The notes: generated by a model not told the origin, from the letters alone. A stretch of 64,000 nucleotides of DNA from a virus (IMGVR_UViG_3300046535_001151:12272-76271), one strand, 5' to 3'; shown: positions 57,217 through 62,829, counted from the first letter of the stretch. Program-made: numbers and translations.

Positions 57217-57381
57217 TTACCACGGGTTCCATCCTCCAATACTCGGGACGCTCGTCACGCCCATCGATTCCTTCGTGCCGAGATGAATGACCTCATCCGT
57301 GCCCCCTCCACCAACGGGCGGTGGGATGAAGACGAAGGCGTAGAAGGCGAAGTAGCCACCGCCGAAGGGATAGCCACCCAT
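57217..57381 (-). CDS. Small Gly/aromatic-rich protein
   Basis: Own translation MGGYPFGGGYFAFYAF...GGWNPW (54 aa); TGATG-coupled. Confidence 0.5.
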   Translation of the reverse strand: MGGYPFGGGYFAFYAFVFIPPPVGGGGTDEVIHLGTKESMGVTSVPSIGGWNPW

Positions 57382-57941
57382 CAGGCCAGCACTCCCGTCA
57401 GTTGGGCACAGCGATCTTCGACAATCTTGATGTAGTCGTAGTGGCCCGGTTGCATCGACAGCCGGTCAGGCGCCCACGCCGAGGGGAGATCCTCAATCGG
57501 CAGATCCAGCCGGGTCTGCGGGTAGGCCAGCCACGTCATGATCCGCTCGGTCTCACGCCGGTAGACCTGATCCTCCCCGTAGACCGCTCGGTACTGATTC
57601 AGTACCTGAATAGTCCGCTTCGGGAAGATCGACCCCCACCCGAGAAGGGCGATCCGACTCTGGGCATACGACTTCAGGTGGGCTGGCTTCATCGCACAGG
57701 TGATCTGGTTCGGCACAGCGGCAACGAGGAGCTGTGGAATCGGGGCGAGGCAGTCGTCATCCTGATAGTAGAGATACTCGTACTTGGCCTTGGCGAACAG
57801 TTCCTGCTTCCGGTGGGGGCTGTCACAGTTGGTCAGGAACAGGTACTCACCGAATCCCACCGCCATAACCCGGTCTACGATCACCTGTGGATAGACGGGA
57901 TCCTTCGTGATGAAGCAGGCGGAGATGTAGTGGGGATTCAC
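57381..57941 (-). CDS. Small GT-A fold glycosyltransferase
   Basis: AKYEYLYYQDDD DxD motif; GTGA-coupled. Confidence 0.65.
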   Translation of the reverse strand: MNPHYISACFITKDPVYPQVIVDRVMAVGFGEYLFLTNCDSPHRKQELFAKAKYEYLYYQDDDCLAPIPQLLVAAVPNQITCAMKPAHLKSYAQSRIALLGWGSIFPKRTIQVLNQYRAVYGEDQVYRRETERIMTWLAYPQTRLDLPIEDLPSAWAPDRLSMQPGHYDYIKIVEDRCAQLTGVLA

Positions 57942-58762
57942 GGGGCCGGATAGGGTCTGAGCGTTGGCCATGTTTTGCTGGATAGGAAGTGAAAATACGC
58001 GATCTCCCGCCCGAAGCATCCCCGCCACGGAGCATAGTTCGTCAACGCCGGATGTGGATCCTCGAAGCACTCGATCAACGCCCCGTCCGGTGCCAGCGTG
58101 AGGTTGGGGGTCGGTTGGTGCTGCACGAGCCTATCATAGCTGTGGACGGCGAAGTATGGCGGGTGGCCGAAGCGAATCTTCCCCACGTCGGCGAGGAGCC
58201 GGATGATCCGGTCGAAGTAGATCTCGTCGAACCCCACCATCGGGACCCCGTTCACCTGGAACATCTCCTGCCAGTGGGGGACGAACCGGTAGAGGCCGTT
58301 GATCCACGGGATGTTCTTGTACAGGCACCACAGGCTGTTCACATGGTGGTTGTCGTCGGACCAGAGGTCGTACTGGGTGAGGGTCTCGTCGGGGAGGAAG
58401 TGATCGAGGCGCCCGTAGAGCACGTCCCAGTTGGTAATGCTCCAGTAATCGCAGTCGGTCAGCAGGTCCGCGAACAGCTCCCCGAAGGCCGGGTAGTAAT
58501 CACTCAGGAGCTTCACCGGCAAGAAGTCGGCATCCAGGAAGTTGCCCGAGTCCACACCCGTGATGGCTTTGACCCGCGCATCGAACTGCGCGAACGTCAT
58601 CGGCACGATCTCGACATTCGGGCTCTTGGAGGTATAGCCGTGCGGGGTGAGGATCTTCCACGACCAGCCGTAGGGCGCGAGGCTGCCGATATGCTCGAGA
58701 TACTGCTCCGTCCACGGGAAGGGCGGGCCAAACTGGGGCAGGAGAAAGGTCTTTCTCAGCAT
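57938..58762 (-). CDS. DUF6625 family protein (GT-like)
   Basis: KLLSDYYPAFGELF, DYWSITNWDVLYG, GFDE, YFHF. Confidence 0.75.
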   Translation of the reverse strand: MLRKTFLLPQFGPPFPWTEQYLEHIGSLAPYGWSWKILTPHGYTSKSPNVEIVPMTFAQFDARVKAITGVDSGNFLDADFLPVKLLSDYYPAFGELFADLLTDCDYWSITNWDVLYGRLDHFLPDETLTQYDLWSDDNHHVNSLWCLYKNIPWINGLYRFVPHWQEMFQVNGVPMVGFDEIYFDRIIRLLADVGKIRFGHPPYFAVHSYDRLVQHQPTPNLTLAPDGALIECFEDPHPALTNYAPWRGCFGREIAYFHFLSSKTWPTLRPYPAP

Positions 58763-59802: not shown

Positions 59803-60689
59803 AGACGGAGGAAGAGGACTTCTTCGTTATCCGCGGTCTCGGCCATCTTCTTCCACTGATTCGCGTTCCGCTGCCAGCGCGGATTCCCTAATCCATCCCC
59901 CGCGAGCACCGCCATGAACAGCACGGCTTCTTTGAAGTGGGGGTTGATCGCGAGACACTGCAGCAGGGCATCGCGGGCATCGTCCGGCATCCGCAGCTCC
60001 CAGTAGGCCCGGGACATGGTCAGGAACGCTTCAGCCTTCTCCGCCAAGAATCGTGACTGCTGGACGTAGCGGCCGAGCATGACGAGGGCTTTGTCGTACT
60101 GACCCCGGTAGAAGTACTCCCGCCCGAGGTAGAACCGCTCACGAATGCAGTCCGGCCGAGTGGCCACTTCGTGTTCAAGGATCCGGAGGGTGCGGAGGGG
60201 ATCCTGCTGGTGAGCCGGTGAGTAGCCGAAGGTGATCGTGACGTTCCCGACATCCTCGCCCATGACCGAGAGGTGGTTGTGAATCGCGCCTTCCCACCAG
60301 ACATTCGGCGAGCGGAGGAACAGGCGAGGGAACCAGAAGGAGGAGGTCGGTCCGTACTCGGCGGTCATCTTCACGTTCACGGCCATGAACGCTCGAGCGC
60401 AGGCGTCACGGACGGTACTGAAGGGGCAGGTCAGGTATTCGTCGGCATCGATCGAGAGGATCCAGTCACCGGTCGCCTTGCTCAGCGCGTGGTTCCTCGC
60501 GTTGGCGAAGTGATCCTCCCAGACGTAGTCGGTGAAGATGTTGTCGGTGTACTGCTTGGCGACCTCGATGGTGCGATCGGTGGATCCGGTATCGCAGATG
60601 ATGATCTCGTCGGCCTCTTTGACGGATTCCAAGCAGCGAGCGAGGACGGCTTCTTCGTTCTTGCAAATCAACACAACCGAAACGCGCAT
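59799..60689 (-). CDS. GT2 glycosyltransferase with C-terminal TPR
   Basis: CKNEE, DTGSTDRT, FANARN, SIDADE; FYLGREYF TPR helices. Confidence 0.9.
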   Translation of the reverse strand: MRVSVVLICKNEEAVLARCLESVKEADEIIICDTGSTDRTIEVAKQYTDNIFTDYVWEDHFANARNHALSKATGDWILSIDADEYLTCPFSTVRDACARAFMAVNVKMTAEYGPTSSFWFPRLFLRSPNVWWEGAIHNHLSVMGEDVGNVTITFGYSPAHQQDPLRTLRILEHEVATRPDCIRERFYLGREYFYRGQYDKALVMLGRYVQQSRFLAEKAEAFLTMSRAYWELRMPDDARDALLQCLAINPHFKEAVLFMAVLAGDGLGNPRWQRNANQWKKMAETADNEEVLFLRL

Positions 60690-60693
60690 GCGC

Positions 60694-62829
60694 CTAGCCT
60701 ACACCCTTTGCCAAGAGCAGCCATTTGTTAATCGAGTTGGCCGTCACATACCGGAAGGACAGCCCAATCGTCTGGTTGGTGGTGGTCACCGCTGGCAGGG
60801 TCGCGCCGAGGGTGTTGGCGAGATAGCCCCCCGCGGAGGTCGACCAGGTGATCCCCTTCTGGGTGCCGGTGCAGAGGATCAGCATTTCCAGATATTGGCC
60901 GGCCGTGGGCGAGCCCACTGGAGCACCGAAGACCGCCGTGATGGCCAGTGTCGAGAGCACATACAGGTCGGTCGTGCTCACGTCAGGAATGGGCGTCTGC
61001 GTCGAGCTTTGCGTGAAGATCCTCGGCACAATCGGATTGGAACCAGCTCCAGTTGGTCCTGTGGATCCGGTGGGGCCTGTCGGTCCCGTTGGGCCGGTGA
61101 CCGCAGTGCCCTGTGGACCCGTCGGACCTGTGGGGCCAGTCGGCCCGGTGAGCTGGGCCGCCGTTCCTTGCGGGCCTGTAGGACCCGTGATACCCGTGAT
61201 ACCCGTGGGACCGGTAGGCCCGGTCAGTTGAGCCGCTGTCCCTTGAGGACCGGTAGGCCCAGTCGGACCTGTAGGTCCCGTGATCCCTGTGGGTCCGGTG
61301 GGTCCGGTGGGTCCTGTCACCCCGGTGTTGCCATTCCGCGCAAAGTTGAAGACGCACGCCTCGGCATTCGAGGGAGGGTTCGTGCCGGCCTCATACGCGA
61401 CCAGTACTTCATTGAAGCCAGTTCGGGCGAGTTCCGTCGAGACCGTGAAGGCGTTGACGTTACTCCCCAGGTTGCTCTTGATGAACAAGTAGCCGGGGTT
61501 GGACTGAGCCGACTGGAACACCGCGCCCACACTGTTCCCAGACGCATCGGTGTTACTGAGATAGACACTCGTGACGTTCGCCAGCGTCGGGCTGTTGTAG
61601 TTGAAGTTCCCGCTGCCCGGATCCGTGGTGGCCGTGGCGGTCAGGAAGTTGTAGCGGAGACCGCCCTTGTCGCCCGTGACGCCCGTGGGACCGGTAGGCC
61701 CCGTGATCCCAGTCGGGCCAGAGGGTCCTGTGGGACCTGTTGCCCCAGCACCCGTGGGACCGCTCGGGCCTGTGGGTCCGGTCGGACCTGTCAACTGCGC
61801 GGCGGTCCCCTGTGCGCCGGTAGGACCGGTAATCCCTGTCGGCCCGGTGGGACCCGTGAGTTGAGCCGCGGTTCCCTGTGCCCCCGTTGGACCGGTCGGA
61901 CCCGTGGGACCGGTGAGTTGGGCTGCAGTTCCTTGGGCACCCGTTGGTCCTGTAGGGCCTGTGGGTCCCGTCACCGTGGACGCGGTTCCCTGAGCACCCG
62001 TCGGGCCGGTGATCCCGGTCGGGCCGGTTGGCCCCGTCAGCTGTGCCGCAGTCCCTTGAGCCCCCGTCGGACCCGTTGGGCCAGTAGGACCGGTGAGCTG
62101 TGCAGCCGTGCCTTGTGCGCCGGTCGGTCCTGTGGGACCCGTCGGGCCAGTGATCGTTGAGGCTGTCCCCTGTGCGCCGGTTGGCCCCGTCGGACCCGTA
62201 GGACCCGTCAGTTGGGCAGCCGTGCCTTGTGGACCAGTAGGCCCGGTCGGACCCGTCAATCCTGTAGGGCCGGTCAGAATCGCAGCCGTGCCCTGAATCC
62301 CCTGATCGCCCGTCGGACCTGTCGGGCCGGTGATCCCCGTCGGACCCGTGACGCCGGTCGCTCCTCCACCCGGACCTGTCGGACCAGTCGGCCCGGTGAC
62401 CTGTGCTGCCGTGCCCTGTGGACCTGTAGGCCCTGTCAGTCCTGTGGGTCCGGTAGGACCAGTCGGGCCGGTAGGCCCTGTAGGCCCCGGGAGAGCCGCT
62501 TCGATGTCCTGGAGGAGCTTCGCCGTGATGGCCAGCGCCACCAGATCGCCCACGATGATCGATCGGTTCCCGTTACCGGTGCGTGCGATCGGACGAGCGG
62601 CGAGGGTGAACGTATCCCCAACCAGCGCCGTGACCCGCAGGATCTCTGCCGTCGTCACGGACGGCATGGTGTTGACCGCCCACACCACGAGGTCGTAACC
62701 CTGTGCGCCGGGAGCGGGAAACCGTACGCCTTGGCCTGCGGTGACCGTGAGGGTGGTTCCCGAGAGGGCGGGAACCGGGGCGATCGCCACCGCACTGAGG
62801 GCGAGGTCTTGGTGGGGATCGAAGGCCAC
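60694..62829 (-). CDS. Collagen-like tail fibre protein
   Basis: Two Gly-X-Y tracts dominated by GPT; fibre-attachment-like N-terminus (EILRVT). Confidence 0.9.
61046..62488 (-). repeat. Collagen GPT repeats in two tracts with periodic GTAAQLT interruptions
   Basis: Tracts at ~61046-61335 and ~61672-62488. Confidence 0.9.

Follow-up and report, generated by a model that had tools for sequence, protein, structure and literature searches.

Positions 57381-62829 of a 64,000-nt stretch of phage DNA, referred to here as the window (bases 12272-76271 of the 76,271-bp IMG/VR virus record IMGVR_UViG_3300046535_001151, designated G000), hold five minus-strand genes in near-gapless series. A gene for a collagen-like tail fibre is followed by genes for a family 2 glycosyltransferase with tetratricopeptide repeats (GT2-TPR), a PIG-L deacetylase fused to a methyltransferase, a DUF6625 protein and a 186-aa open reading frame (ORF), and the four enzyme genes, hereafter the cassette, are considered here as a candidate system for glycosylation of the fibre. 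Sequences of this phage turn up in soil and rhizosphere metagenomes. The five genes, in order of transcription, are:

60694-62829, minus strand: collagen-like tail fibre, 711 aa (PF01391, PHROG tail-fibre families); proposed glycan acceptor
59799-60689, minus strand: GT2-TPR glycosyltransferase, 296 aa (PF00535, TPR_2 and TPR_14); proposed initiating protein O-glycosyltransferase
58756-59802, minus strand: PIG-L (LmbE-type deacetylase) fused to a class I S-adenosylmethionine (SAM)-dependent methyltransferase, 348 aa (PF02585 and PF08241); proposed glycan-tailoring enzyme
57938-58762, minus strand: DUF6625 protein, 274 aa (PF20330 and AlphaFold2 (AF2) model); predicted GT-A-fold glycan-extending glycosyltransferase
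57381-57941, minus strand: small GT-A-fold protein, 186 aa (predicted structure); proposed second extending glycosyltransferase

This gene order, on one strand and with a short gap followed by overlaps, had been given in a preliminary description made from the window alone, and was borne out by coordinates, Pfam matches and junction sequence, which all agree. Between the fibre and GT2-TPR genes lies a 4-nt gap (stop TAG, GCGC, start ATG). By ORF coordinates, the GT2-TPR gene then overlaps that of the PIG-L::methyltransferase by 4 nt (ATGA), and the latter overlaps the DUF6625 gene by 7 nt, while the DUF6625 stop and the start of the 186-aa ORF share a 4-nt GTGA. For this last gene GTG 57941 (186 aa) is the most likely start, in place of 58070 (229 aa), because of the GTGA overlap and because a second, allelic copy described below and 35 homologues align only from there. 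Its initial designation as a small GT-A enzyme was retained as to its fold, by predicted structure, while the longer reading from 58070 was given up.

The fibre and the four enzymes

The fibre matched the Pfam family Collagen (PF01391) at 92.5 bits (cut-off 27.2; E-value 1.3e-26) and PHROG tail-fibre families with E-values down to 9.4e-59. Thr makes up 20% of the protein (144 residues), there are 58 Gly-Pro-Thr (GPT) triplets, and in its 16 runs of Gly-X-Y (GXY) triplets, each 5-11 triplets long, Thr occupies 74% of the Y positions. The collagen part is composed of diverged 57-66-nt tandem units. Along the protein the following parts could be distinguished:

Residues 1-112: N-terminal anchoring domain
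Residues ~115-388: collagen region 1
Residues ~399-497: non-collagen middle domain
Residues ~500-596: collagen region 2
Residues 600-711: C-terminal domain

A profile of the N-terminal 112 residues matched the N-terminus of PDB entry 8jov, a 'putative tail fiber protein' of 18 chains, with an E-value of 1.5e-5, which supports a genuine tail fibre anchored by its N-terminus. A literature search for 8jov returned no relevant paper, and PDB sequence searches with the C-terminal and middle domains gave nothing usable. Used as a single query, the N-terminal domain found no viral relatives in a search of low sensitivity; a search of similarly low sensitivity with the C-terminal domain found only 12 close relatives, and all 12 had the cassette, with its glycosyltransferase.

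The GT2-TPR protein matched PF00535 at 76.1 bits (cut-off 23.3; E-value 3.9e-21), TPR_2 (31.3 bits, cut-off 27) and TPR_14 (30 bits, cut-off 23.5) at residues 219-261, and phrog_13126 with an E-value of 3.5e-40. Its best solved relatives in the PDB were GmaR (E-value 1.6e-23, residues 3-87) and SunS (E-value 1.1e-11, residues 7-209). The DTGS motif and D81/D83 (DAD, i.e. DXD) were found to be invariant in 38 homologues of 37-53% identity. In the fusion protein encoded next, residues 4-114 matched PF02585 (40.1 bits, cut-off 28.2) and residues 201-265 matched PF08241 (Methyltransf_11; 33.7 bits, cut-off 21.2). The translation contains the PIG-L metal-binding motifs PHDDD and HPQH and, just upstream of the PF08241 match, the glycine-rich methyltransferase motif I, LHLGCG.

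The DUF6625 protein matched PF20330 at 79.4 bits (cut-off 27; E-value 5.2e-22), and its AF2 model had a predicted local distance difference test score (pLDDT) of 93.1. When this model was compared with 48,161 PDB chains using VIA-align, the top match (Z 11.0) was to A64R, the capsid glycosyltransferase of PBCV-1 (2p6w), a likeness at the level of fold only, with 8% identity; the best 50 matches listed were all GT-A glycosyltransferases, and Foldseek matched the model to GT6 and WrtF. For the 186-aa ORF no sequence family was found in Pfam, PHROG or NCBIfam. Its 192 homologues, all unannotated, lie on the same large phage contigs as GT2-TPR, and a DDD motif at residues 61-63 is invariant. The top Foldseek matches of its AF2 model (pLDDT 95.6) were all GT-A proteins (SpsA, GalNAc-T2 and EXTL2; probability 0.99-1.0, TMq 0.45-0.58). 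Both the DUF6625 protein and the 186-aa ORF are therefore predicted, from their models, to be GT-A glycosyltransferases. No NCBIfam family scored above its cut-off for any of the four enzymes, and none of the four contains a membrane segment. By family matches and predicted structure the cassette is composed of three glycosyltransferases and one bifunctional tailoring enzyme, all predicted to be soluble.

Association of GT2-TPR genes with collagen-like genes

A survey of viral sequences yielded 80 loci with full-length GT2-TPR homologues (35-86% identity), which fell into 63 clusters at 80% identity. A collagen-like ORF, defined by at least 15 GXY triplets and a position within 6 kb of the glycosyltransferase gene, was present in 40 of the 63 clusters, lying on the same strand in 37 and within 800 nt in 22, and in 31 of the 41 loci that had at least 3 kb on both flanks. 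As controls we used 118 random viral loci (1.04 Mb), chosen by an arbitrary 14-mer, and only one of these held a collagen-like ORF. The arrangement of fibre and glycosyltransferase is thus far beyond chance, with a Fisher p of 1e-22 that is nominal, the survey clusters being related and not phylogenetically independent. A reverse survey took 120 viral loci chosen only by a (GPT)3-coding DNA pattern and scored members of the glycosyltransferase family at 100 bits or more; these were found in 18 of the 120 loci and in none of the 118 controls.

The association extends to bacteria. Among 80 bacterial GT2-TPR loci (30-45% identity, mostly from Clostridia and other Bacillota), 42 had a collagen-like ORF, mostly directly after the glycosyltransferase gene and usually starting 200-400 nt past it, a gene pair like that of sgtA and bclA3 in Clostridioides difficile. 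Across the range of 35-86% identity in phages and in bacteria, the collagen-like ORF was the one partner that recurred, usually as the immediate neighbour on the same strand; other neighbours were not conserved. Among the phages compared, GT2-TPR and a collagen gene were both present in G000, G001 and G005, and both were missing from the two nearest relatives by polymerase (57% and 51% identity), G006 (complete, 71.6 kb) and G007. Kinship with GmaR and SunS, linkage to collagen genes in diverged phages and in Bacillota, and the lack of both genes in these backbone relatives together strongly support the earlier suggestion that GT2-TPR is a protein glycosyltransferase acting on the neighbouring fibre. 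The separation of fibre and cassette, which the preliminary description had named as telling against its proposal, was not found in close relatives, where all 12 relatives of the fibre C-terminal domain were accompanied by the glycosyltransferase, but was seen in both directions at the level of the families, as discussed below.

That the four enzymes act as one unit, as had been supposed, was backed by gene fusions. A 643-aa protein of 60% identity (P0314) joins GT2-TPR, PIG-L and methyltransferase domains, PIG-L is fused to DUF6625 in two further cases (P0297 and L028), and GT2-TPR is fused to a methyltransferase domain in a gene adjoining a collagen gene (L034). The 72 longer members of the GT2-TPR family include 4 with PIG-L and 11-15 with methyltransferase domains, others having extra glycosyltransferase domains. 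As the same domains are joined in several combinations elsewhere, the enzymes appear to belong together. At L028:6900-8246, on a 42.7-kb phage contig, PIG-L::DUF6625 takes the place of PIG-L::methyltransferase, and the fusion beside a collagen gene lies at L034:6001-7407.

Two alleles at one locus

The record contains a second, diverged cassette at record bases 3110-10972, which we call allele A, the cassette of the window being allele B. Protein identities between the alleles are 65% for the fibre, 86% for GT2-TPR, 81% for PIG-L::methyltransferase, 89% for the DUF6625 protein and 83% for the small GT-A protein. The block in which they differ has its 5' edge at one further gene, whose product is 58% identical between the alleles:

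62831-63646, minus strand: 271-aa protein directly upstream of the fibre, without Pfam or PHROG match; 5' edge of the block differing between alleles A and B

The next gene upstream of this one encodes proteins of 100% identity in the two alleles. Allele A has two extra genes between those for DUF6625 and the small GT-A protein, namely a nucleoside diphosphate (NDP)-sugar C-methyltransferase (Methyltransf_13/14, E-value 1e-54) and an HNH/NUMOD3 endonuclease. These two adjacent genes (L005:3660-5593, genome bases 3660-5593) form an insertion where the small GT-A gene begins, and what lies upstream of the small GT-A gene is repeated in the first 43 residues of the allele A C-methyltransferase ORF. 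The insertion of the C-methyltransferase looks like a gene gain linked to a homing endonuclease.

Several observations bear on how one record comes to hold both alleles. The last gene of the record is cut by the record end and has a counterpart at bases 10907-11290, with 95.6% identity in DNA and 100% in protein. From run X1, a Logan contig of 15,012 nt has the B-type letter at all 10 listed of 17 sites that differ between A and B, runs unchanged through 11164-12600 and continues for ~12 kb into the backbone. This contig joins B-type sequence to the backbone flanking A, which puts record bases 1-11290 (~11.3 kb, the allele A module) and window 57338-64000 (~6.7 kb, the allele B module) at one and the same position in the genome. 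Sequence comparison thus indicates that in the 76,271-bp record two variants that co-exist were assembled into a single wrap-around sequence, and that each genome has one cassette. A true duplication or tandem repeat, which had been considered as the source of the two copies, was ruled out by the Logan contig. The genome unit is estimated at ~65 kb from overlap geometry and the bridging contig only, an estimate that the nearest complete backbone relative, at 71.6 kb, does not back.

The fibre gene, cassette A and two downstream fibre-like genes show 85% nucleotide identity between G001 2673-12388 and G000 10143-1. G001 (IMGVR_UViG_3300047444_000168) is a complete genome of 43,174 bp with terminal repeats, and has almost nothing else in common with G000; the fibre and cassette thus move between phages, by horizontal exchange, as one host-recognition module. 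Elsewhere, within a DUF551 gene at window 34120-34621 (G000 46391-46892), ~500 bp are 96% identical to G001 32877-33380, well above the other shared parts, which suggests, from sequence identity, a recent exchange between the two phage types.

A putative fibre glycosylation system and its alternatives

SgtA of C. difficile is a GT-A and TPR enzyme encoded beside bclA3, which adds beta-O-linked N-acetylglucosamine (GlcNAc) to the Thr of GPT repeats in vitro (PMC7157674). By the architecture and gene order described in that work, the phage genes resemble this pair, with a GT-A domain followed by TPR and with a gene adjoining one for a Gly-Pro-Thr-rich collagen. We consider it probable, from this analogy and from the sequence evidence above, that the phage encodes a system that glycosylates its own collagen-like tail fibre and works like SgtA and BclA3. 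It differs from them in that its genes belong to the late operon of a phage, the collagen partner is a predicted tail fibre with a phage fibre N-terminal domain, the glycosyltransferase gene follows the fibre gene instead of preceding it, and three extra enzymes are encoded; the phage enzyme is, moreover, only 30-38% identical to bacterial members of its family. GmaR, an O-GlcNAc transferase for flagellin in Listeria, and SunS, which S-glycosylates sublancin and is encoded by the Bacillus prophage SPbeta, are likewise soluble GT2 enzymes with a specific protein or peptide acceptor, although their acceptors differ, being Ser/Thr of flagellin for GmaR and Cys of a peptide for SunS.

From the gene content, predicted folds, family relationships, fusions, conserved linkage and allelism observed here we infer a substrate, sugars, an order of steps and a biological role as follows. 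The soluble GT2-TPR would be produced immediately after the fibre, both being encoded on one late transcript, and its TPR domain would hold the unfolded or newly made Gly-X-Thr chain while the enzyme transfers the first sugar to the hydroxyl groups of Thr, with a nucleotide sugar of the host as donor. If SgtA and GmaR are a guide, this sugar would most likely be GlcNAc. The DUF6625 and 186-aa GT-A-fold enzymes would add further sugars, and the PIG-L::methyltransferase would tailor the glycan, the likeliest, if speculative, course being removal of an N-acetyl group followed by methylation. As the allelic modules differ in tailoring genes, the variants would display different glycans. The specific chemistry by which an N-acetylhexosamine is added, deacetylated and methylated is put forward by analogy and, in that exact form, is doubtful. 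The pathway had moreover been called complete, a description that we have dropped: the cassette contains no nucleotide-sugar synthesis genes, allele A has its extra C-methyltransferase, and a paralogue of that enzyme lies in a second sugar locus described below.

Glycosylation of the fibre is well supported by comparative genomics, yet unproven, and several points weigh against it. The phage is uncultured and known here from its genes alone. Bacterial collagens generally have Thr at the Y position, where it stabilises the helix with no need of sugars (PMC8968730). In the reverse survey, 102 of the 120 GPT-collagen loci (~85%) had no GT2-TPR family member nearby, so that these fibres do not need such an enzyme, and 23 of the 63 viral glycosyltransferase clusters had no collagen ORF in reach, some of them having short flanks; the family may have other acceptors. 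The relatedness of the clusters, mentioned above, also tempers the statistics of linkage. Among the enzymes, GT2-TPR reached 50.1 bits against the NCBIfam SunS equivalog TIGR04195 (cut-off 350), over residues 6-86 only, and is not a SunS equivalog. The best NCBIfam match of PIG-L was a weak one to BshB1 (25 bits, cut-off 182.5), of which it is not an equivalog, and the full-length PIG-L::methyltransferase had no PDB sequence relative at an E-value of 0.01 or below.

The clusters without a collagen neighbour could be taken to mean that the cassette glycosylates some other virion protein, such as the capsid, a 709-aa lectin-like fibre encoded downstream or the 271-aa upstream protein, the collagen gene being a mere neighbour in a host-recognition region. 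The module does include further fibre-like genes, and the glycosylation known from mycobacteriophages falls on proteins of the capsid and the tail tube (Freeman et al. 2023, as cited in PMC11256854). We nevertheless hold this to be unlikely, since a collagen-like ORF is the only partner of the glycosyltransferase that recurs, in phages of 35-86% identity and in bacteria alike. Slightly less likely again is that the enzymes modify a host surface or polysaccharide, in superinfection exclusion or receptor masking, or that they act with the replication-linked sugar locus in hypermodifying DNA. The PHROG label of 'moron, auxiliary metabolic gene' beta-1,4-glycosyltransferase would suit such a role, as would that second locus of glycosyltransferases and methyltransferases by the polymerase, with its paralogue of the allele A C-methyltransferase. 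In contrast, however, the cassette genes overlap one another inside a late virion operon, their products have no membrane segments, unlike Gtr-type O-antigen modifiers, the nearest characterised relatives modify proteins or peptides, and the conserved partner is a gene for a structural protein.

Chaperones of tail fibres are often encoded by the gene that comes next after the fibre gene, and TPR domains bind extended peptides. GT2-TPR stands in just this position and has such a domain, and could thus be envisaged as mainly a chaperone for fibre assembly, with a vestigial or secondary transferase activity. This is very improbable, as the catalytic motifs DTGS and DXD are invariant throughout the 38 homologues and three more sugar enzymes follow, found fused to GT2-TPR elsewhere. 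We thus favour glycosylation of the fibre, and, on sequence and by analogy, would describe the whole as a system for protein glycosylation that resembles SgtA-BclA3, has tailoring enzymes added to it and travels on a mobile tail-fibre module of phages.

Phage virions have long been held to be unglycosylated. In mycobacteriophages such as Che8 and Rita, the one described case in the literature searched, phage glycosyltransferases decorate the phages' own virion proteins, those of the capsid and the tail tube (Freeman et al. 2023, as cited in PMC11256854), which makes it certain that tailed phages can bear glycans. The likeness to the present cassette, drawn from the literature, is functional only, and no collagen fibre is the target there. 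Mimivirus hydroxylates and glycosylates its own collagen, the glycan being on hydroxylysine (PMC8968730), and glycosylated fibrils are likewise known from giant viruses. In Mimivirus and in PBCV-1, with A64R, virus-encoded GT-A enzymes glycosylate virion surface proteins, as proposed here, although those are viruses of eukaryotes. A full-text literature search found no paper linking phage collagen-like fibres with glycosyltransferases or O-glycosylation.

If the fibre is glycosylated, a sugar coat, besides the protein tip, may aid host recognition, adhesion to polysaccharide matrix or resistance to soil proteases, and the linkage in 40 of 63 clusters would make fibre glycosylation common in environmental phages. 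A broader proposal, which we offer as a real but tentative possibility, is that collagen-like fibres bearing glycans form a class of phage virion structure that is widespread but has gone unrecognised, in which a dedicated GT2-TPR family shared with spore-formers O-glycosylates the Gly-X-Thr of fibres in numerous phages of soil, fresh water and gut. The module would be swapped between unrelated phages, and its allelic tailoring genes (C-methyltransferase, PIG-L::methyltransferase, PIG-L::DUF6625) would diversify glycans that tune host recognition or protect the fibre. A compact cassette of four soluble enzymes with a repetitive acceptor would also offer a simple system for making defined glyco-collagens, and would suit study of the way in which Gly-X-Thr repeats are read by a TPR glycosyltransferase. 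The two natural alleles, only one of which has a sugar C-methyltransferase, provide a ready comparison.

Neighbouring genes and a second sugar-enzyme locus

Genes for terminase, portal, a structural protein and an internal virion transglycosylase lie nearby on the minus strand. The earlier statement that virion genes resume after the cassette was upheld in part: a phrog_399 structural protein, a 1356-aa protein and the internal virion transglycosylase are encoded downstream, but the four genes immediately past the cassette are without annotation. The stop of the small GT-A gene overlaps, in the sequence TGATG, the start of an unannotated ORF of ~54 aa, rich in Gly and aromatic residues (window ~57220-57382, minus strand). 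Further downstream, the 709-aa protein mentioned above (window 53538-55667, minus strand) has a weak match to a ConA-like lectin family (Laminin_G_3, E-value 5e-4, below cut-off), and is a candidate for a receptor-binding protein found in allele B alone.

The second sugar-enzyme locus lies in the replication arm (window 26403-38674), next to the polymerase, and encodes a GT4 glycosyltransferase, a GT2-like protein, an FkbM methyltransferase, a C-methyltransferase that is a paralogue of that of allele A at 33% identity, and an AspH-like 2-oxoglutarate (2OG) oxygenase. Its products could act in DNA modification or on the fibre glycan. The oxygenase gene overlaps the start of the polymerase gene, and the presence of an AspH-like enzyme in a genome with collagen genes raises the question of Pro or Lys hydroxylation.

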